Positions 24,572 to 32,179 of a DNA stretch of 32,179 nucleotides are shown here, in pieces; the stretch's first letter is position 1, and each line of letters begins with the position of its first letter. Location of the stretch: positions 1 to 32,179 of the forward strand of contig JACROO010000045.1 in assembly GCA_016214355.1 (NCBI GenBank), read 5' to 3'. The position numbers and the translations under genes were made by a program. A model generated the notes under the pieces. It made no database searches. It was given only the letters and a program-made list of their open reading frames with translations, and was not told where the DNA came from. Source of the stretch: Nitrospirota bacterium (lineage in GTDB: Bacteria; Nitrospirota; Thermodesulfovibrionia; UBA6902; DSMQ01).

Positions 24572-27500
24572 TTAAAAACTCGCCCTTTCCCTCACATACT
24601 CAAACGACCTGTCGTTAAACCACCTGTCAAGCTGAGACGGCTCTTTCAACTGCTGGCCCCGGTATCTTGGGACTGCAACATAGCTTATCTTTAAATCTTT
24701 CAGGCGGGTCATGTCCCCCCATAGTTTCTCAAATTGTGCTACGGGATAAACATCTTCCTGTCCTGAACCCCATACATACTTCACATTCTTGATGGTTACA
24801 TATGTCGGCATCCTTTTTTCAATATGCTGAATTGCCTCAAGTATCCTGTCGTTCTTCGCGGAATCCTTCTCAGCATCTATGATTAAACCTCTGTCAAGAC
24901 CAAAAAACTCAAGAAGACTATCTATCGTAATCCAGTTTGTAAGGGTATTATAATAACTTAACATATACTCATCCTCTTCCCGTGGAAGTGCTAATCCTTC
25001 TATAAGCTGGATATACCCGTTTATCTTTGCCAATCCGCCGCCTCTGTCTTCAATCCGCCTGGGGGTCACCTCAAATGACAGGCAGGATTGATTTGAAATG
25101 TGCATACCGAGAATCGCAGGTTCAATATCAGCGCCCATTGTATCAATATTGTGGCAGAAGAGATATTTAAGGCAGGGGTTCTCTTTAATTATTCCGGACA
25201 GGACGCCATTTTTTATAAGATTCGGAATTTCATACCAGTGACCGGGGGGATTGAACCTCAGTATGGGCTTATTTTCTGAATAATCTTCTCCTTCCCCTTT
25301 GGATTTTGTCCACTCAATCAATGCCCTGTGGATATTTTCCTGCAGTTTCTGGGTGTTTTCGTCTAATTTTTGCTGAAGCTGGTCTTCCCACAGAAAACGC
25401 AGGTCCCTCTCATTAGGATAAACCCTGTGTCCTATACTCTTGCCCAGAGACAAATATATCCTTGCCCTGTCGCCAAAATAATTAAACCTCTTCAGATAGT
25501 TATCAATGGCGACGTGAGTCAGGTAACTTGTTGTGATTACATGAGGTATCTTATATCCGGATACCCTTCCTGTTTTTCTGCTTTTAGCAAGATGGATTTC
25601 CATGAAAGTCCGGAATTTTCCCTCCATCTTTACAAAGGGGTTTATCGGTTTAACAACCGCTGCCCCTTCGGTCCATCTGCTGCCCATGCCTCCGGCAAAA
25701 GTCACAACTGCGGCCTCATTTCTTTTTAATGACTCCATTCCCGATTTATAAGAATCTCCGTTAGATTTGTCCTTTTCAAAATGGGAAACTTCGTTATCAC
25801 TGACGTCCTCAAGTTTAGTGGTTACAGGCAGCCTGTTCCTTGACAGGCCAATTTCTCCCTGCCTAAGAAGGGTCTTCATATGCTCGTGGGATTTGGAGTC
25901 AAATCCGTATTCCCTCTTAATCCATTTTTCGTTAAGAAATTTTTTAGTCCCGGAAGCAGAATCTTTATCATCCTGTATCTTAGAACTCTCAGGCATCTTT
26001 GCATCTTCGCCGGCTAATAACCGGGCAGAGTTGCCATCATGATTGAAGTCAAAGTCATATACCAGCGGGTCAATGGTAAAAGGAAGGGAATAATTATATA
26101 AATTCTTCAGCTCAGACATAATCTCAACTACCCTCTTTTTAAATTTTTCTTTGATTTCAGGTTTTATAATAAATGCCATTCCGCTGCCTGACATTCCGCC
26201 TAACATCAGGAAACCCCAGTAGTCTTCTTTGAATTCTTTTTTAACATTGTTAATCAGGTCTTCTGTAAATGCATTATTTGCCCATGGAATAATCTGCTGT
26301 ATTGGTCCTTCCCAGTCCTCTGTCGTAAGCCTGCCGAGTTCTTTCAGATTTCCCTGCGCGAGGGCATCAGTAATCTTGTCAAACAGATGAATCCCCCTTA
26401 TCCTTGCGTTCCATTCCTTTTCGTATCTCAGCAGATATTTCTCAGTGACCATTTCCAGAATCGGACCGACATTCTGAGAAATTCCTCCGTGAACAAGAAC
26501 CACAGAATTTATTATCTTATCTTCAACCCCCTGCGGTACATCGGTACGGGAGAATAAACTGTGATTGGGAAGCAGGCATCCTCTGCTGACACCGAATTCA
26601 GGAGTCCCAATCGTAGCTGCTTCACCCGTAATTATTTTTATCCCTGGCCATAATCCGCCTGAATCCTGCCATCCGCCGCCAGAGCCGCCAAGCCACTCCC
26701 CAAGTATTGCACGTGAAGCCGCTATCCGCCGTTCCTCTTCTGTCAGTAAACCCGTCTGACTCTTAGTCTGTCCGCTGAACCTCATCAAGCAGGTTATGAT
26801 TGTTGCCAGAAGTGTTGTGCTTACAGCAAGCCGCGACCCTTTCGGAATATCGTTTACCCTGCTTACAACTTCTATACCGCCCGGTTTATTCAGTAATTTT
26901 TTCAGGATATCTTTTAATTCAATATTTTTGTTTTCAAAAGAGGGCGGTACAATTCCTGATGCCACAACGCCTGCCTTTAATAATGAGAGGTAGTCATTTC
27001 CGAAATTAAATAACTCCAGAAGCGAAGATATTTTCTTTGATGTATTTAAATCAATAGACCTGAGGGATATAACAGGTTCTTCAATAAACCTGCAGTAACA
27101 CTCACACGGCGGTTTAACAGTCCCTTCATCGCCGCTAACCTTAAGATTAACAGAGATATTGACAACCCGTGCACCTTCAGGAAAGTCCATCCCGAGAAAA
27201 AATATGTCAGACCATCCGCTGTGTGAAGGATCTAATCTGACAGGCGTGGCATCCATTCCAACAGGGTATAAACCTGTCCCGGCATCCGGGATTGTCAATT
27301 CCGGCAGGACGGAATATGGATAATTTTCCAAACCATGCGTATTAAAGAGATAAAAGTTTTCATTGCATTGACTGATAGACAGTCTTACCTGGTCAACTAA
27401 ATATTTAAAGGCTAACTGATAATAAGAATGGGCAATTGCACTGCAGACAGCACCATTAAGGTTTCTATTTTTCATTACATCCTTCAGGTAAATATTTATT

Positions 27501-27787
27501 GATTCTTCAAAATTCCTGTCAAGCGCAGCCTTTACGCCTTCAAACGGAATCCTGCCCTCTGGTTTTATCTCTTTATTTTCCTGAAGATAAAACCTGTAAA
27601 TGACAAAAAGGAACAGCGATGCACGCACCTTATGATACAGATTGTTAACTGTCTTTCTAAAATCCTCAAGTTCTTCCGCTGATTTCAGAAGTTCGTCTGT
27701 ATTTTTATTTTTCAGCAGGGAGTCAATGGAACGGTTGCGGAGAGAGATGTCTTCGCTGGTTATTGTTTCAATAAGTTCATTTATCAT
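24572..27787 (-). CDS. Fusion of a GHMP (fucokinase-like) sugar kinase and a UDPGP-family sugar-1-phosphate nucleotidyltransferase
   Basis: N-terminal half: PVRLD...GWSD, IPKGSRLAVS, GGGWQD, LGGMSGSG. C-terminal half: FAGGMGSRW...K, NPPGHW, HNIDT, RGGG, QFEK. Confidence 0.8.
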   Translation of the reverse strand: MINELIETITSEDISLRNRSIDSLLKNKNTDELLKSAEELEDFRKTVNNLYHKVRASLFLFVIYRFYLQENKEIKPEGRIPFEGVKAALDRNFEESINIYLKDVMKNRNLNGAVCSAIAHSYYQLAFKYLVDQVRLSISQCNENFYLFNTHGLENYPYSVLPELTIPDAGTGLYPVGMDATPVRLDPSHSGWSDIFFLGMDFPEGARVVNISVNLKVSGDEGTVKPPCECYCRFIEEPVISLRSIDLNTSKKISSLLELFNFGNDYLSLLKAGVVASGIVPPSFENKNIELKDILKKLLNKPGGIEVVSRVNDIPKGSRLAVSTTLLATIITCLMRFSGQTKSQTGLLTEEERRIAASRAILGEWLGGSGGGWQDSGGLWPGIKIITGEAATIGTPEFGVSRGCLLPNHSLFSRTDVPQGVEDKIINSVVLVHGGISQNVGPILEMVTEKYLLRYEKEWNARIRGIHLFDKITDALAQGNLKELGRLTTEDWEGPIQQIIPWANNAFTEDLINNVKKEFKEDYWGFLMLGGMSGSGMAFIIKPEIKEKFKKRVVEIMSELKNLYNYSLPFTIDPLVYDFDFNHDGNSARLLAGEDAKMPESSKIQDDKDSASGTKKFLNEKWIKREYGFDSKSHEHMKTLLRQGEIGLSRNRLPVTTKLEDVSDNEVSHFEKDKSNGDSYKSGMESLKRNEAAVVTFAGGMGSRWTEGAAVVKPINPFVKMEGKFRTFMEIHLAKSRKTGRVSGYKIPHVITTSYLTHVAIDNYLKRFNYFGDRARIYLSLGKSIGHRVYPNERDLRFLWEDQLQQKLDENTQKLQENIHRALIEWTKSKGEGEDYSENKPILRFNPPGHWYEIPNLIKNGVLSGIIKENPCLKYLFCHNIDTMGADIEPAILGMHISNQSCLSFEVTPRRIEDRGGGLAKINGYIQLIEGLALPREEDEYMLSYYNTLTNWITIDSLLEFFGLDRGLIIDAEKDSAKNDRILEAIQHIEKRMPTYVTIKNVKYVWGSGQEDVYPVAQFEKLWGDMTRLKDLKISYVAVPRYRGQQLKEPSQLDRWFNDRSFEYVRERASF

Positions 27788-28037
27788 TCTTGGTTTATAT
27801 TATAACCATGCAGTTCTTTGGTAGGCAAGTTGTTAGTTTGCGTCCATCTCCAAAAAAGTTGGGATAATCTTAATTCAAAGAATCAAGTAAAAGTTAGCAG
27901 TTAACAATTATCATTTTAAATTGCTAAATGCTAACTTTGACCTTATATCTGCTCCCTTGCCATGAGAACAAATCCTTTTGACCCATCTGCATCACCGGTA
28001 GTGAAATGAGGATACTTTTGCAAAGAGTCAAAACCGT

Positions 28038-28364
28038 TTAAGACAGATTTTTTACAAATTCCCTGTACCTTAAAGGCGGGTCTATAATCTCCATACCAAT
28101 TGTGGTTGTTATGTCATCAGGCGGAGAGTTGTGATATGACCATCTGACAGCACAATTAAGATTAATCGTGTCTCCTGAAGAGAGTTCAAACTTCAGGTCA
28201 ATAGGCGTACCCGGGAAAAATTCAATTATTGACTCTGCAGGCACAGTTATTATCTGAATACCGTGCTCTGAAATATTCTCTATAAACACTGCACGGTTTT
28301 CATCGCCTGAGATGCGCTCAGCCTTCAGATAAACCTTTTTTCTTTCAAAACGTCTTTTTTCCAT
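28038..28364 (-). CDS. PilZ domain (c-di-GMP-binding) protein
   Basis: RRFER (RxxxR) and NISEHG ((D/N)xSxxG) motifs, VRW, GMEI. Confidence 0.9.
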   Translation of the reverse strand: MEKRRFERKKVYLKAERISGDENRAVFIENISEHGIQIITVPAESIIEFFPGTPIDLKFELSSGDTINLNCAVRWSYHNSPPDDITTTIGMEIIDPPLRYREFVKNLS

Positions 28365-28535
28365 CGGGGAGATTTTACCATCAAAGAAAGAAAAATTAAA
28401 GCAAAAAATCAGTAGTGATGTCTAACATTCTGCCAAACCACTACAATATTGTCATCCCCGCTTCCAGAGTTAATAGTCTTTTAGTTATCATATAAATTAA
28501 AATAACATCTACATTGTTTTTAGAGAAACAGCGGC

Positions 28536-28571
28536 ATGAGTAAAAAATTCCATATACATACATTTGGCTGA
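28536..28571 (+). pseudogene. miaB: Stranded original 5' end of miaB (left junction of island)
   Basis: ATG AGT AAA AAA TTC CAT ATA CAT ACA TTT GGC TG|A = MSKKFHIHTFG; joining at TG to 31195 restores TFGCQMN. Confidence 0.72.
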
Positions 28572-28732
28572 CCCTTGGGCTGTCCTCTACAAATTGTTTA
28601 AACCATTCTTTTTTACCGCTTTTAAATCAGAATTAGCATTTTAAATAAAAACAACCCACACCAACGGCTTTGGTCTGCCTTACCTGCCTGCAAGTCAGGA
28701 AAGGTGGCCTGCTTCCCCCTATAAAAAAATCG

Positions 28733-28788
28733 TTGACATAATCGTATAAAATATATATACTTATTGACAAGTAGTAAGAGATTATACG
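28733..28788 (+). promoter_or_regulatory. abiE promoter with overlapping inverted-repeat operator
   Basis: TTGACA(28733)-17 bp-TATACT(28756); imperfect 20-bp inverted repeat 28743-28762 / 28769-28788 (14/20). Confidence 0.7.
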
Positions 28789-28796
28789 GAGGTTAA

Positions 28797-29387
28797 ATGA
28801 ACACAAGAACACAGGAACTCATGAATTTTTTTCAGAGCCATGGCGGGGTGGCCCGTTTTTCTACTGTTCTGAAGGCTGGATTTCATCCTGATTCGCTTAT
28901 TGCTCTTGAAAAAGAGGGGAAGGTTGAAAAGATTGCCCGGGGCCTTTACCGGGTGGCCAATTATACCCATGGTACACATCCGGATCTTGTTATTGCATCA
29001 CTTCAGGCACCCAGAGGCGTTATTTGTCTTCTTTCTGCTCTGTTTTTTTATGATGCAACAAGCGAGATCCCAAAGTATGTAGCCCTGGCTATTCCGCAAG
29101 GTAGTCATGCAAATAGAATTAAGTATCCACCGGTAAGATTTTGCCGTTTTGCGTCTAAAGCATGGAAAGCAGGGATTGAAGAGCATGAAATTGAAAGACA
29201 GTATAGCCTCGCTAAGACGATTGCCGATTGTTTTAAATTCCGTAATAAAATAGGTATGGATGTCGCCAGAGATGCCCTCAAGGTTGCTGTTACAGAAAAA
29301 AACATAACTCCAAAAGAAATTATGAAATACGCCAAAATTTGCCGTGTTGATAGCATTATAAAACCAATACTGGAAGCTATGATATGA
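28797..29387 (+). CDS. abiEi: Type IV TA antitoxin AbiEi family
   Basis: wHTH with KIARGLY, GVICLLSAL, KTIADCFKFRNKIG; ATGA overlap with the toxin gene. Confidence 0.92.
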   Translation: MNTRTQELMNFFQSHGGVARFSTVLKAGFHPDSLIALEKEGKVEKIARGLYRVANYTHGTHPDLVIASLQAPRGVICLLSALFFYDATSEIPKYVALAIPQGSHANRIKYPPVRFCRFASKAWKAGIEEHEIERQYSLAKTIADCFKFRNKIGMDVARDALKVAVTEKNITPKEIMKYAKICRVDSIIKPILEAMI

Positions 29388-30298
29388 AAAAGGATATTAA
29401 GAATATAAAAGCTTCTGTTCGCGCCCGTCTTCAAGATAAAGCGAAGGAAGCTGCTCAGCCATTTTCAGAAATTCTGCAATATTATGGGATGGAGAGATTC
29501 CTTTATAGGTTTAGCCGTTCTAAATATGCGGATAAATTTATCCTGAAAGGCGCGCTTATGTTTACAGTTTGGCAAGTTCCACAAAGACGGACAACGCTTG
29601 ATATAGATTTCTCAGCACGCTATGACAATCAGATAGCAACTATTGAGAAAGTAATCAAAGATGTATGTAAGGTTTCGGTGACTCCAGACGGGCTTGTTTT
29701 TGATTCGCAGACAGTAAAGGGACAGAAAATAAAAGAAGATGCTGATTACGAAGGCATACGTGTTAAATTTAGAGGTTTTTTAGAACGCTCACGTATCCCG
29801 ATGCAAATTGATATTGCTTTTGGCGATATCATCTATCCAAAACCTAAAGTTATTGATTATCCTGTTATTTTAGATTTTCCTAAACCCCATCTTAAAGGAT
29901 ATCCCGCAGAAAGTGTTGTTAGCGAAAAATTTGAAGCTATGGTTAAGTTAGGTCTTTTAAACAGTCGCATGAAGGATTTCTATGATATTTGGCTCATGAT
30001 GCGTCAGTTTGATTTTGATGGTCTAAAACTCGTTGAAGCTTTAAAAGGAACCTTTGAACATCGTAAAACTCCTTTGCCAGAGCATAAACCATTATTCGCT
30101 GAAGAAATTTACGATGAAAAATCCGATCGCCAAACATTATGGAAGGCTTTTCTAAAAAAGGGAGATATTAAATACGTACCAGAAAAGTTGCGCACAACAG
30201 CCACAGAGATAGAACAATTTCTTATTAACCCGCTTGATGCAATTTATAGAAGCCAAGAGTTTAGCAAAGAATGGAAATCCGCAGGACCGTGGAAATGA
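29384..30298 (+). CDS. abiEii: Type IV TA toxin, AbiEii/AbiGii nucleotidyltransferase
   Basis: ERFLYR, ILKGA, RTTLDIDF, QIDIAFGD, SEKFEA, NSRMKDFYD. Confidence 0.93.
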   Translation: MKKDIKNIKASVRARLQDKAKEAAQPFSEILQYYGMERFLYRFSRSKYADKFILKGALMFTVWQVPQRRTTLDIDFSARYDNQIATIEKVIKDVCKVSVTPDGLVFDSQTVKGQKIKEDADYEGIRVKFRGFLERSRIPMQIDIAFGDIIYPKPKVIDYPVILDFPKPHLKGYPAESVVSEKFEAMVKLGLLNSRMKDFYDIWLMMRQFDFDGLKLVEALKGTFEHRKTPLPEHKPLFAEEIYDEKSDRQTLWKAFLKKGDIKYVPEKLRTTATEIEQFLINPLDAIYRSQEFSKEWKSAGPWK

Positions 30299-30331
30299 GA
30301 AATGATGAAAGAAGAAGTATAGTATAAGATA

Positions 30332-30629
30332 ATGAAAACCGCCTTATACATAAGAGTATCCACCGAAGACCAAGCCAAAGAAGGCTATTCTCTTGAAGTC
30401 CAGAGGGAGCCCCTATAGATTCTTTCAGAATCTAAACACAGGGATAGATATATCTTGAGTCCTTTGCTGAAAGGGAAGGGCACCCCCATGGTTTTGATAC
30501 CCGTAGTTTTCCTTATGGAAAACATAGCACGGGTACAGGACAAAACAAAATATGGGGACGTATGAGATTTATAAAATCTATCAGGATGATGGGATAAGCG
30601 GCTATTCTACCGAACGTCCTGCTTTTTAA
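30332..30629 (+). pseudogene. Serine recombinase N-terminal relic split by two palindromic insertions
   Basis: MKTALYIRVSTEDQAKEGYSLEVQRE [41 bp] YLESFAEREG [80 bp] YEIYKIYQDDGISGYSTERPAF*. Confidence 0.88.
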
Positions 30630-31160
30630 TTAAAACCCTTGCTCAAATATTGTAAAATATCTGTTACCATGAGTTTTAAACGTAATGCTGTGTTTTTCGT
30701 ATATATCGTTAAATGTGCTAACGGAACATATTACACCGGTTACACAAATAATCTCGAGAACCGAATCAAACTACACAATAAAGGGGATGGCGCAAAGTAT
30801 TTAAAAGGAAAGTTGCCGGTCCAGTTGGTTTATGCTAAAGAATATAAATATTATAAAAATGCGTTGCATGCTGAGAGGAATTTAAAGAAGTTGACTAGGA
30901 AAGAGAAGGAGGTATTAATTTCGAACTATGAGCGCACAAATGGAAATTTATCCCTATAGATTCATTCTGAATCTATACATAGGGATTAGAAAAAAAGGTT
31001 GCCCCCGTAGTTTTGCTATTGCAAAACTGGACACGGGGACACCCATGTCTAAGTTTTCAGGTGGTATTTTATGAGATACTACTCCAGAATGTTTAGGTGC
31101 TCCCACAGATTTGCCGCTGCAAATCTAGGACGTGGGAGCAACCGTGTCCAGGTTTTGAGG
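30410..31160. repeat. Family of ~40-bp imperfect palindromes, about CCC-NTAG-WTTT-loop-AAAW-CT-NNACAC-GGG
   Basis: Copies at 30410-30450, 30481-30560 (nested pair), 30951-30986, 31002-31039 and 31100-31138; half copies at 31041-31060 and 31141-31160. Confidence 0.8.
30669..30959 (+). CDS. GIY-YIG nuclease (UPF0213/YhbQ-like)
   Basis: VYIVKC...YTGYTNNL..R...HN.G.GAKY, AE..LKKL.R..KE; the stop codon lies inside a repeat copy. Confidence 0.9.
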   Translation: MSFKRNAVFFVYIVKCANGTYYTGYTNNLENRIKLHNKGDGAKYLKGKLPVQLVYAKEYKYYKNALHAERNLKKLTRKEKEVLISNYERTNGNLSL

Positions 31161-31165
31161 AAAAT

Positions 31166-32179
31166 ATGAAATATTTTCTCAAAACCTACGGTTGTCAGAT
31201 GAATGTCCACGACTCTGAGAAGATTGCAGGTATTCTCTCGGAATCAGGATATAATGCGGCAGATTCTGTCACAGATGCTGATGTGATAGTTCTGAACACA
31301 TGCAGTGTGAGGCAAAAGGCAGAGCAGAAGTTTTTTAGTGAACTGGGAAGGCTGAAAGCAGAAAAAAAGAAAAATCCTGATTTAAAAATTGCTGTTGCCG
31401 GCTGTATTGCACAGCAAAGGGGCAGCGATATATTTGAACGTTTCCCTTATGTTGATTTTATTTTTGGTCCTCAGAATATTGATAGTCTTGAGAAGTGGAT
31501 ATCAGACAAACCACAGGCAATAGACGCCAGACAACAGACATCAGACTACGCAGTACGCGGTACGAGATACGCAGAACAGAATCCTATAAAAAGGGAAGGG
31601 CAGGTCAAGGCATGGGTAGCTATAATGCACGGTTGTAACAACTTTTGTTCGTACTGTGTTGTGCCTTATACCCGCGGCAGGGAAAAAAGCAGGCACAGCA
31701 TGGACATTCTTAATGAGATTAGGGAAATTGCAGTGCAGGGGTTTAAAGAGGTGGCACTTCTTGGGCAGAATGTTAATTCCTATGGCAAAAATCTTCCTGA
31801 AAACATAGACTTTCCAGATTTACTTAAAGTAATCCATGAGATAAATGACATACAAAGGATTAGATTTATCACCTCTCACCCTCGGGACCTTTCAGAAAAA
31901 CTGATAAAAACAATGCGTGACCTGCCTAAAGTATGTGAGCATATGCACCTGCCCATACAGGCAGGCTCTGACAAAATCTTATCACTTATGAACAGGGGGT
32001 ACTCATACATTCAGTACAAAGAGAAAATTGACATGCTCAGAACAGAAATCCCTGATATTGCTATAACAACAGATATAATCGTTGGTTTCCCCGGGGAGAC
32101 TGATGATGATTTTGAATGTACAGTTAACGCCTTGAAGGAGATAGAGTTTGACGGTATTTTTGCCTTTAAATATTCAAAA
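31166..32179 (+). CDS. miaB: tRNA (i6A37) methylthiotransferase MiaB, runs off the window end
   Basis: TYGCQMNVHDSE, NTCSVR, VAGCIAQ, radical SAM GCNNFCSYCVVPYTRG, LLGQNVNSY, TSHPRD, IIVGFPGET. It is absent from the ORF track because no stop falls in the window. Confidence 0.96.
   Translation, partial: MKYFLKTYGCQMNVHDSEKIAGILSESGYNAADSVTDADVIVLNTCSVRQKAEQKFFSELGRLKAEKKKNPDLKIAVAGCIAQQRGSDIFERFPYVDFIFGPQNIDSLEKWISDKPQAIDARQQTSDYAVRGTRYAEQNPIKREGQVKAWVAIMHGCNNFCSYCVVPYTRGREKSRHSMDILNEIREIAVQGFKEVALLGQNVNSYGKNLPENIDFPDLLKVIHEINDIQRIRFITSHPRDLSEKLIKTMRDLPKVCEHMHLPIQAGSDKILSLMNRGYSYIQYKEKIDMLRTEIPDIAITTDIIVGFPGETDDDFECTVNALKEIEFDGIFAFKYSK
31501..31574. repeat. In-frame degenerate heptamer repeats (AGACNNC n, TACGCAG n) in the MiaB interdomain linker
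   Basis: Encodes SDKPQAIDARQQTSDYAVRGTRYA. Confidence 0.75.

Follow-up and report, generated by a model that had tools for sequence, protein, structure and literature searches.

The window, by which we mean the whole 32,179-nt stretch of Nitrospirota DNA analyzed here, raises the question of why the tRNA-modification gene miaB seems to begin twice: once as an orphan ORF of an ATG and ten further codons closed by a TGA (ending at 28571), and again downstream of an AbiE-type gene pair, where a second start leads into the rest of the gene. The initial annotation had noticed both an 11-codon MiaB-like start at 28536 and a second start, MKYFLKTYG, with a GAGG ribosome-binding site (31155-58, 7 nt upstream of the ATG at 31166), and both can be read in the sequence (Table 1). 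It had proposed that a serine-integrase island within miaB carries a replacement N-terminus, which proved largely right given an empty site in the same-family genome G004, a left (P') arm that matches the tail of a large serine recombinase (LSR), and an intact relative of the element in G453. We put the probability at about 0.85 that positions 28569-31194 are a decayed integrative element inserted in miaB by an LSR, with strand exchange at the TG of the codon for the first conserved Cys, which we take to be an Fe-S cluster ligand.

Table 1. Features of the split miaB locus in the window.
Feature	Positions	Strand	Match or remark
PilZ-domain gene, host flank left of the island	28038..28364	-	Pfam PF07238, E 7.5e-11
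Stranded native miaB start (B arm), MSKKFHIHTFG	28536..28568	+	Peptide equals live miaB start of same-family G004
Left TG copy of the putative crossover core	28569..28570	+	With the next A, the orphan's stop codon
P' arm, putative 3' tail of the recombinase gene as in the excised form	28571..28700	+	
AbiEi antitoxin-like regulator (cargo)	28797..29387	+	Pfam PF13338, E 6.6e-8
AbiEii nucleotidyltransferase toxin-like gene (cargo)	29384..30298	+	Pfam PF08843, E 5.3e-41
LSR pseudogene, 66 codons left	30332..30656	+	Three pieces versus a 541-aa relative
Small GIY-YIG nuclease-family gene, in the place of the missing LSR part	30669..30959	+	Pfam PF01541, E 7.2e-18
Array of strong hairpins/repeats upstream of the new miaB start	30950..31165	+	Repeat families D2, D3, I1, I21
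Replacement miaB start MKYFLKTYG (27 nt), read as surviving P-arm end	31166..31192	+	
Right TG copy of the putative core	31193..31194	+	First two bases of the Cys codon
Native miaB body (B' side), CQMN onward, open at contig end	31195..32179	+	Pfam, PDB matches

The downstream ORF is an intact reading frame of 338 aa to the contig end, in which TGT at 31193 begins CQMN. It has the domains of a MiaB, namely UPF0004 (PF00919; residues 2-101, profile positions 1-98 of 98) with the first conserved Cys, followed by Radical_SAM (PF04055), and it aligns from residue 2 with the PDB MiaB 7mjv (E 1.7e-88); its C-terminal TRAM part falls beyond the contig end. Together with the orphan, this gives the layout of an island insertion, with an old 5' end left stranded and a new island 5' end in frame at 31166. 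Both junctions are bridged without differences by Logan contigs of run X1 (27800-28595 and 30365-31222), a run that may be the source sample, so that its support is not independent. Reads across attB or attP, which the initial annotation had suggested as a check, were not found for this organism.

That annotation had also predicted that relatives with an empty site would have PilZ and miaB side by side, and this arrangement occurs in G004, where PilZ is divergent from miaB across a spacer of about 190 bp with no island, and where the intact miaB begins MSKKFHIHTFGCQMN, the same peptide as the window's orphan. The window's PilZ gene is 75% identical to that of G004, and a promoter-like site (28449-28477) lies ahead of the stranded start. 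G004, which offers the nearest empty site, is from a different genus and is not a sister strain (MiaB 67-74% identical), and the gene order orf342, a 1071-aa UDPGP-like gene and miaB is common to at least nine relatives. These comparisons bear on the converse reading, namely that MKYFLKTYG-miaB is native and the 11-codon fragment is foreign, carried in by the island from an earlier host. Starts of the MSKKFHIHTFG and MKY.LKT.G types are both natural in the order, and the closest MiaB by identity (G018, 72%) begins MKYYLKTYG, as such a history would allow. However, the fragment occupies the position of G004's start beside the same PilZ neighbor and encodes the identical peptide, which contradicts this reading; moreover, the P' arm begins only after the fragment, and the DNA to its left is host synteny. 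We consider a foreign origin of the fragment highly improbable.

The arm that follows the orphan points to the kind of enzyme involved. Read from 28567, the frame gives ADPWAVLYKLFKPFFFTAFKSELAF and then a stop, and 20 of the 24 translated residues are identical to residues 539-562 of the 564-aa LSR P0072; more broadly, 28567-28641 is 79-83% identical to the final residues of P0072, P0070 and P0099. These alignments show the left junction as the host start MSKKFHIHTFG joined to what would be the P' arm of the element, the 3' end of the LSR gene in its excised form. The arm has 88-94% nucleotide identity to G010:C33 and stands, from the same base, behind five MiaB-type starts (the window, G010, L058 and two sites in L059), where the third base of the Gly codon before TG is C, C, G, C and A. 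Orphan starts in G037, G034, G046 and G036:C80 are followed by P' arms of two further classes, and in three of these four (G037, G034 and G046) a live miaB lies downstream of the orphan in the same orientation. Since the 26 nt from 28569 follow, without any change, four further short starts of the MiaB type in other records, and since the orphan peptide equals the live start of G004, the split-miaB pattern, as judged by alignment, is far beyond chance.

At the left junction the sequence is GGC-TG-A, at the right one GGT-TG-T, so that the base 5' of TG is C on the left and T on the right, and the base 3' of it A on the left and T on the right. Across nine junctions (the window and eight others), flanking bases vary or switch origin immediately on both sides of TG, as expected from the exchange at a 2-bp core that had been proposed for this locus. 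Strand exchange appears to be confined to this non-palindromic TG core, which is of the serine type. An 8/11 palindrome and a GGT/ACC symmetry, also pointed out previously, are present in the sequence; they are weak when taken alone and are not needed here.

Between the two junctions, AbiEi and AbiEii (93% and 91% nucleotide identity to G046:C21) are adjacent, overlapping ORFs that form a predicted AbiE-type pair (type IV toxin-antitoxin/abortive infection), with a strong promoter-like site (11/12 positions) at 28733-28761 ahead of AbiEi. The gene behind them begins MKTALYIRVSTEDQ, which has 86% identity to residues 1-28 of P0009, as expected of a resolvase-type catalytic domain with its serine nucleophile motif at the N-terminus; the Pfam Resolvase match over these first 28 aa is below the cut-off (E 0.0037). 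Its pieces correspond to residues 1-28, 27-36 and 38-66 of a 541-aa relative (86%, 90% and 77% identical by tblastn with P0009), are frame-shifted, and are cut after RPAF. Two small insertions interrupt them at about 30406-30449 and about 30484-30560, and contigs from runs X3, X1 and X6 are without both. Past residue 66, tblastn found nothing in the window, and the recombinase (PF07508) and zinc-ribbon (PF13408) domains are likewise absent from it; since both are present in homologues and deleted here, the window LSR is a pseudogene and not a working enzyme. The earlier proposal that the island supplies the start of miaB was supported with amendments; in particular, the island is a dead relic, its LSR down to 66 codons. 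Since neither the window nor the MAG (85% complete) has an intact LSR, the enzyme behind the junctions cannot be named with certainty.

In the remaining part of the island, a promoter-like site (30630-30658) precedes the GIY-YIG gene, and the hairpin array holds a second copy of a 35-nt palindrome that is present at 30411-30445 (RNA fold of 30940-31200, z = -7.9). We find it probable that miaB is now transcribed from island promoters, either that of GIY-YIG or that of AbiE.

Homologues of the broken gene are LSRs of 540-565 aa that carry PF00239, PF07508 and PF13408, with sources labeled Nitrospirota, Omnitrophota or simply bacterium; the search gave 514 matches, the best 120 of which were used, and identity over the catalytic piece is 80-94% among the matches listed. 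How these proteins end proved informative. Among the matches listed, 41 of the 69 LSRs of at least 500 aa terminate in [A/D][V/A][R/K]-stop, 19 carry P'-type tails (3, 9 and 7 by class), and 9 end otherwise. The three-residue end is the one expected of an LSR ORF running into the TGY-CAR-ATG-A of miaB (Cys-Gln-Met codons), and together with G453, where it is seen in DNA, it provides the link between recombinase and miaB that the initial annotation had recommended looking for.

In G453, an intact LSR gene lies directly upstream of miaB and overlaps it, the LSR frame ending ESISGLSDVR-stop and the miaB frame reading MPEKSKSYEKSAPRVYIRTFGCQMN to open a 443-aa MiaB, with mtaB next. Read in the second frame, the last LSR codons spell out a substitute N-terminus for MiaB, complete with ATG and ribosome-binding site and connected to CQMN at TG. 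This arrangement shows that, in the intact relative, the P arm is the LSR gene end and doubles as a predicted MiaB-type N-terminus. Integration there would have stranded the old start and given miaB a new one before the rebuilt Cys codon, and it would also have shortened the LSR, a tail of ~25 residues giving way to three residues and a stop from the CAG-ATG-A of miaB. Dual coding is seen in DNA in this one element, and for the other 40 LSRs it is read from how the proteins end. A search for the left junction of the G453 element did not find it. A replacement N-terminus within the LSR 3' end, in the second frame, was unforeseen in the initial annotation.

With the family described, we can weigh a reading in which a tyrosine integrase or illegitimate recombination made the junctions and the serine-recombinase remnant is an unrelated passenger. 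The window's recombinase is too broken to test, and the role of an LSR is read from sequence, which leaves some room for this account. On the other hand, a recombinase gene's own 3' tail makes up the P' arm, 41 of the 69 family members listed end within the CQMN codons of miaB, and no tyrosine integrase was found between 28571 and 31165 by listing the ORFs and scanning the named genes with Pfam. Furthermore, crossover identity is only 2 nt here, whereas 6-8 nt is typical of tyrosine recombinases. We regard the passenger account as close to negligible.

The right end is less simple. In the window, the LSR frame is closed by a TGA overlapping the ATG, and tblastn with P0009 found nothing LSR-like upstream of 31166, which together indicate that this arm is not of the dual-coding type of G453 and that the end was rearranged. 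The same two facts would suit a history in which the integration at TG is genuine but MKYFLKTYG did not come from the element's arm, a later event having restored the broken miaB 5' end; its source could be recombination with foreign DNA carrying GIY-YIG and a miaB 5' end, or gene conversion. In line with this, G013 and G033 carry a GIY-YIG homologue (73% aa identity) amid ordinary host genes, 1.7-4 kb ahead of miaB, and no orphan was seen in the fetched stretches of G024, G033 and G018 (the G018 contig begins 83 bp upstream of miaB) despite their MKY.LKT.G-type miaB starts. We nevertheless judge such a repair unlikely. Exact MKYFLKTYG occurs in 2 of the 32 miaB starts seen, those of the window and G046, and in both cases the start is preceded by the same module of AbiE genes and broken LSR (91-93% nucleotide identity), which in G046 is without the GIY-YIG gene. 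The two miaB genes are 69% identical in nucleotides, and their proteins are not sisters in a tree of 30 rows (MiaB residues 10-338), where the window pairs with same-family G003, with weak support (88/29). Since start and module are shared despite unlike miaB bodies, the replacement start appears to travel with the island. Over the first 27 nt of miaB, the window and G046 have 4 synonymous differences and are not clearly closer than in the conserved codons that follow; G046 also has an orphan start of its own (MKFFLKTYG), which lies 14.7 kb upstream. Also against a later repair, the short relics in G037, G034 and L059 repeat the order of orphan, P' arm, little cargo and fresh complete start, the arm of the intact G453 element does provide a start, and a low-depth contig of run X6 appears to fuse a P-arm-like end directly to 28565 onward.

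Under the preferred reading, in which an LSR inserted the element at TG, the window copy would have decayed after integration through the two small insertions, a frame shift and the loss of ~475 codons, with the GIY-YIG gene and unrelated hairpin repeats now filling the vacated space and the AbiE pair as the remaining cargo. The right end has probably retained only the 27 nt for MKYFLKTYG and the GAGG site, presumably because the single miaB of the cell now begins with them.

A broader view, which we offer tentatively and think somewhat less likely to be right than wrong, is that the attachment site at the integrase 3' end of this family serves as recognition arm, integrase tail and second-frame spare MiaB N-terminus, such that integration toggles the tail and the MKY.LKT.G starts of this order are fossil integrase ends. 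The integrase would be long-tailed when excised and short-tailed when integrated, which could constitute a putative built-in switch of activity or direction. Integration would also regenerate a usable target, so that elements could stack in tandem and decay in place, and over time the MiaB N-terminus might be overwritten in whole lineages.

These observations suggest a family of site-specific serine integrases devoted to a single codon in a near-universal gene, with hundreds of metagenomic members (514 matches) and a seemingly costless entry into an important gene through a substitute start carried within the integrase coding tail. They make it testable whether the tail swap controls integrase direction, whether chimeric MiaB N-termini work, and whether repeated integration drives N-terminus turnover in a conserved protein. 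Since attB, attP and the core dinucleotide are readable from data, the enzymes are candidates for the integrase toolbox, and a short MiaB-like ORF that ends in TGA ahead of miaB can be annotated as the scar of an old integration.

Among known systems, SCCmec uses ccr serine recombinases to enter the 3' end of rlmH/orfX without destroying the ORF. The miaB island is likewise a serine-recombinase element in the end of a conserved RNA-modification gene whose ORF is spared, but at the 5' end, and we know of no overlap between recombinase gene and site in SCCmec. In the integration-dependent immunity of mycobacteriophages, the repressor gene contains attP and a tyrosine enzyme serves as integrase; there, as here, an attachment site inside an element gene means that integration alters a protein's C-terminus, whereas in our case the protein is the integrase itself and regulatory use is putative. 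Classical LSR prophages and islands occupy protein-coding genes such as comK, sigK and spsM, and in the literature searched we saw no mention of miaB among LSR sites. In the main text of Durrant et al. 2022 (PMC10083194), targets include comM and a prolyl-isomerase, miaB is not named and tRNA has 0 matches. As far as that text goes, its LSRs resemble ours in their resolvase, recombinase and zinc-ribbon domains, in a dinucleotide core, and in the targeting of one conserved coding-sequence site by many diverged LSRs; classical insertions are reported to break the target gene, whose function is recovered when the element excises, whereas here the target is rebuilt upon integration. According to Farrugia et al. 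2015 (PMC4482086), tyrosine recombinases place dusA-specific integrase (DAI) islands and prophages at the 5' end of a tRNA-modification gene. We considered the window as a DAI family member and rejected this, as only a serine-type recombinase was found. The miaB island works like a dusA island, with the 5' end of a tRNA-modification gene as target and a replacement 5' end, and differs from DAI islands in its LSR, its 2-bp core, its target miaB, and, in the intact relative, a substitute 5' end carried in the second frame of the integrase gene.

The two-start layout that the initial annotation had described at miaB is present in the sequence exactly as it stated, with an orphan start just before, and a replacement start at the right end of, an island at 28569-31194 that has a TG at each end (28569-70 and 31193-94). 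We found that the open reading frame from 31166 encodes MiaB, with Pfam UPF0004 over residues 2-101 (the entire profile) followed by Radical_SAM, and the alignment of the solved MiaB structure 7mjv to it begins at residue 2. The window is the entire 32,179-bp contig C37 of a 1.85-Mb MAG (189 contigs, 85% complete). The island is not set off by G+C content, an Rfam scan of 28300-31400 found nothing at E up to 1, and no further copies of the island DNA or its small repeats were found in the MAG.

Features of the window and orphan-start junctions in related loci (P' arm, element DNA right after the left TG)
Feature	Location	Strand	Basis
Orphan miaB-type start MSKKFHIHTFG, eleven codons, closed by TGA	ATG at 28536	+	sequence reading
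AbiEi	28797-29387	+	Pfam
AbiEii	29384-30298	+	Pfam
Serine-recombinase start, three out-of-frame pieces	30332 to ~30656	+	comparison with P0009
Small GIY-YIG gene	30669-30959	+	Pfam
Strong hairpin run	30940-31200		fold z = -7.9
New miaB start MKYFLKTYG	ATG at 31166, GAGG 7 nt upstream	+	sequence reading
Cys codon TGT, then CQMN and MiaB ORF open to contig end	31193 onward	+	sequence reading
(T)KYLLKTYG + P' arm of window	G010:C33		
MKFFVKTFG + P' arm of window	metagenome contig L058		
Decayed ..HTFG and MKYYIRTFG, each + P' arm of window, 0.95 kb apart	L059		
New junction, orphan MTKKYHIHTFG	G037, 0.75 kb upstream of live MTKKYHIHTFGCQMN; HicAB-like cargo between		
New junction, core mutated to TA	G034, 1.9 kb upstream of G034 miaB		
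New junction, orphan MKFFLKTYG	G046, 14.7 kb upstream of G046 miaB		
New junction	G036:C80		regex scan

The stranded start MSKKFHIHTFG is, judging by relatives, the host's own native miaB start. The same-family genome G004 has a divergent PilZ gene, 75% identical to that of the window, ~190 bp from a miaB starting MSKKFHIHTFGCQMN, with no island between the two; this start has the same eleven residues as the window orphan, and its DNA differs only at synonymous-type sites. The predicted empty site, with PilZ and miaB adjacent and an orphan-type start, is therefore found in G004, which belongs to another genus and is not a sister strain. In G003, also of this family, miaB begins MKKFHIHTFGCQMN. 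A joint of the two TG positions, as in an empty site, was not among the joints listed for the assembled contigs of metagenome runs X1, X2, X3 and X6. Upstream of miaB, a 1071-aa UDPGP-like gene, itself preceded by a 342-aa gene, is found in at least nine relatives. The 1071-aa protein (window 24572-27787, minus strand) is a conserved neighbor of miaB throughout the order (66-71% identity); its UDP-glucose-pyrophosphorylase-like domain is confined to residues 839-962, and the greater part of the protein is without a Pfam match. We rejected GIY-YIG as an ancestral neighbor of miaB because it is absent between the UDPGP-like gene and miaB in G004 and G003. In one genus, a GIY-YIG homologue (73% amino acid identity) is located 1.7-4 kb upstream of miaB, at L050 (G013:C15, 3944-4249) and L049 (G033:C23), and in G013 it stands among the host genes phoR, arsR, and acr3.

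The left junction of the island recurs elsewhere. We found the 26 nt from 28569 at the same base after four other MiaB-type short starts, and the base preceding TG in the five junctions sharing this P' arm is C, C, G, C, and A, while TG and everything downstream are constant. A regex scan covering the window and 581 kb of other loci returned 12 matches, eight being orphan/P' junctions and four off-strand or with other stop codons; the junctions in G037, G034, G046, and G036:C80 form two further P' classes. Since the window reads GGC-TG-A at the left and GGT-TG-T at the right, strand exchange is limited to the two bases TG, in agreement with the proposal of a 2-bp core as for a serine recombinase. 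The palindrome claimed for the rebuilt host site was given no weight: its 8 of 11 depends on a 3-nt centre, and a hand count around a strict 2-bp centre finds symmetry at just 3 of the 25 arm positions. On the minus strand of L059 (~2420-1250), a HicA-like gene lies between the two orphan-plus-P' junctions and a LexA-like gene follows the second, a double junction suggestive of repeated insertion at a site that had been regenerated. In G010 (94% complete), an orphan start fused to this P' arm is flanked by a glycosyltransferase gene on one side and a host gene on the other (L048, 11500-11670); no miaB was found in the entire assembly (best E 2.5e-9), and a single deletion may have removed both miaB and the element.

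With an 85-aa catalytic piece from a longer G010 pseudogene as query, 514 proteins were matched, and we compared the best 120. Many of these are large serine recombinases (LSRs) 540-565 aa long that combine resolvase, recombinase, and zinc-ribbon domains and show 80-94% identity over the query piece; their source records call them Nitrospirota, Omnitrophota, or just bacterium. The C-termini are alike up to a KSLSGLS[A/D]-like motif and then split into classes. For the 69 proteins of at least 500 aa among these best 120 of 514, 41 stop after [A/D][V/A][R/K], three end in DPWFVLYKL.KPFFFTAFQVELA, nine have DRW.RY-type tails, seven have DLMLRLYN-type tails, and nine have other endings. The window frame from 28567 reads ADPWAVLYKLFKPFFFTAFKSELAF followed by a stop and is identical at 20 of 24 positions to residues 539-562 of the 564-aa family member P0072, so the left end of the island is the recombinase gene's own 3' tail, and the attachment site falls within the recombinase ORF. 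Recombinase-frame translations of the four junctions in the two further P' classes align to the expected positions of the DRW and DLML tails, though with weaker scores (E 2e-5 to 5e-3). A 20-mer of the P' arm had 0 matches in the viral contig collection and, among genome contigs, matched only the G010 contig plus a GC-rich chance match (L057); with three mismatches allowed, a 26-mer matched only the window in the 401-genome phylum sample.

A close intact LSR was not found in the 64 genomes of the order (best 46% identity), and none was found in the viral contig collection or the phylum sample (0/401 genomes). In the class, two of 390 genomes gave a match, and only that on contig C1 of G453 is close; it is 100% identical to P0069, labeled Nitrospirota by its source. 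This recombinase has 544 aa and ends ESISGLSDVR-stop, and a one-base shift of the same DNA reads MPEKSKSYEKSAPRVYIRTFGCQMNFHDSE, which opens a 443-aa MiaB followed by mtaB. In a second role, the final codons of the G453 recombinase encode a MiaB-type N-terminus that has an ATG of its own and, upstream, an AAGGA-like site; the Cys codon is completed by the TG core, and the recombinase stop is the TGA within the host's CAG-ATG-AAC. Because TG(T/C)-CA(G/A)-ATG-A in the recombinase frame gives [A/D][V/A][R/K], the 41 short-ended members are explained, and the ORFs of the 19 long-tailed members among the best 120 of 514 run across a joined P-P' site (P arm, the element end carrying the replacement start) in an excised or tandem form. 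A replacement N-terminus and expression signals supplied by the island, as the initial annotation had suggested, are directly seen in G453, though inside the recombinase end, a form that it did not foresee. Altogether, the interpretation given with the initial annotation is supported, and we put a probability of roughly 0.85 on this mechanism, in which an LSR integrative element restores the gene that it enters by means of sequence carried in the tail of its own integrase. The left junction of G453 was not found in the 11.2-13.9 kb searched, and two GGNTGAYC matches were rejected because both lie inside real genes. In P0048, a 551-aa family LSR with a PF00919 match, the frame continues past FFAP into KVFIRTFGCQMN and ~40 further MiaB-like residues; this may be a dual-coding arm altered by deletion or frameshift.

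The window's own element is a dead relic. Only recombinase residues 1-66 are left, in three pieces with 86%, 90%, and 77% identity to the family member P0009, interrupted by a palindromic 44-nt insertion (about 30406-30449) and a second insertion (about 30484-30574). Contigs from other runs have neither insertion, so both are secondary, and since the second is common to G010 in a shorter form, the recombinase gene had been disabled before the module was shared. This second insertion is MITE-like with inverted ends (30478-30560), and its G010 counterpart is at L048 (G010:C33) 330-660. The island has two copies of a 35-nt palindrome, at 30411-30445 inside the recombinase ORF and at 30952-30986. 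About one-fifth of sampled island words were found in marine and hydrothermal-vent runs of other studies (X3-X7, X10, and X11); these matches fall mostly in the AbiE pair and recombinase start (window 28733-30408) at ~90-99% identity, so this module circulates widely.

The window recombinase ends after RPAF, with GIY-YIG and the hairpin repeats next, and no LSR-like sequence was found directly upstream of 31166, between the RPAF break and the ATG. A TGA in the recombinase frame overlaps that ATG, so the window arm, as it stands, is not dual-coding in the manner of G453. Foreign DNA might have repaired the 5' end of miaB later, an explanation that we regard as improbable, and we instead read MKYFLKTYG as the part of the element's arm that has survived at its end. 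Several observations point to this: of the 32 miaB starts examined, two have exactly this peptide, one in the window and one in G046, and each of them follows the same module of AbiE genes and broken LSR; the module is 93% and 91% identical over 667 and 1026 nt, while miaB is only 69% identical; a separate orphan start, unlike that of the window, stands farther upstream in G046; and in a MiaB tree (residues 10-338, 30 rows), the window pairs with G003, with weak support (88/29), and G046 with G017. The tree was built without G004 (frameshift) and G016, G020, G027, and G031 (partial or split). The short relics in G037, G034, G032, and L059, which lost the recombinase and kept a complete start, fit the same reading. 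Selection for the cell's only miaB would preserve exactly these 27 nt; G000 has one miaB and one mtaB-like paralogue. Run X6 has a joint from about 31078 to 28565 at a depth of 2.79, a hint only.

Promoter-like sites precede the orphan (28449), AbiEi (28733, 11 of 12 positions), and GIY-YIG (30630), and none was found directly before the new miaB start. We infer that miaB is now probably transcribed from island promoters. Together with codons 2-7, the GAGG and ATG lie within a near-perfect 15-bp inverted repeat (31150-31185), part of the hairpin array, which might limit translation or might be the scar of the recombinase deletion.

The relic in the window exposes a widespread, apparently undescribed integrase-target arrangement. 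Within full-text literature available outside subscription journals, we found no report of miaB (or methylthiotransferase) as an attachment site for a serine or other integrase or a prophage, or as an attL/attR site. Durrant et al. 2022 (PMC10083194) describe LSR target genes as disrupted by insertion, and miaB is unnamed in the main text. Another report (PMC4482086) mentions the MiaB-like rimO as a target in Polaromonas and describes islands that replace the 5' end of dusA, another tRNA-modification gene. The dusA islands are the closest analogue of the window's island, but they use a tyrosine integrase (PMC4482086).
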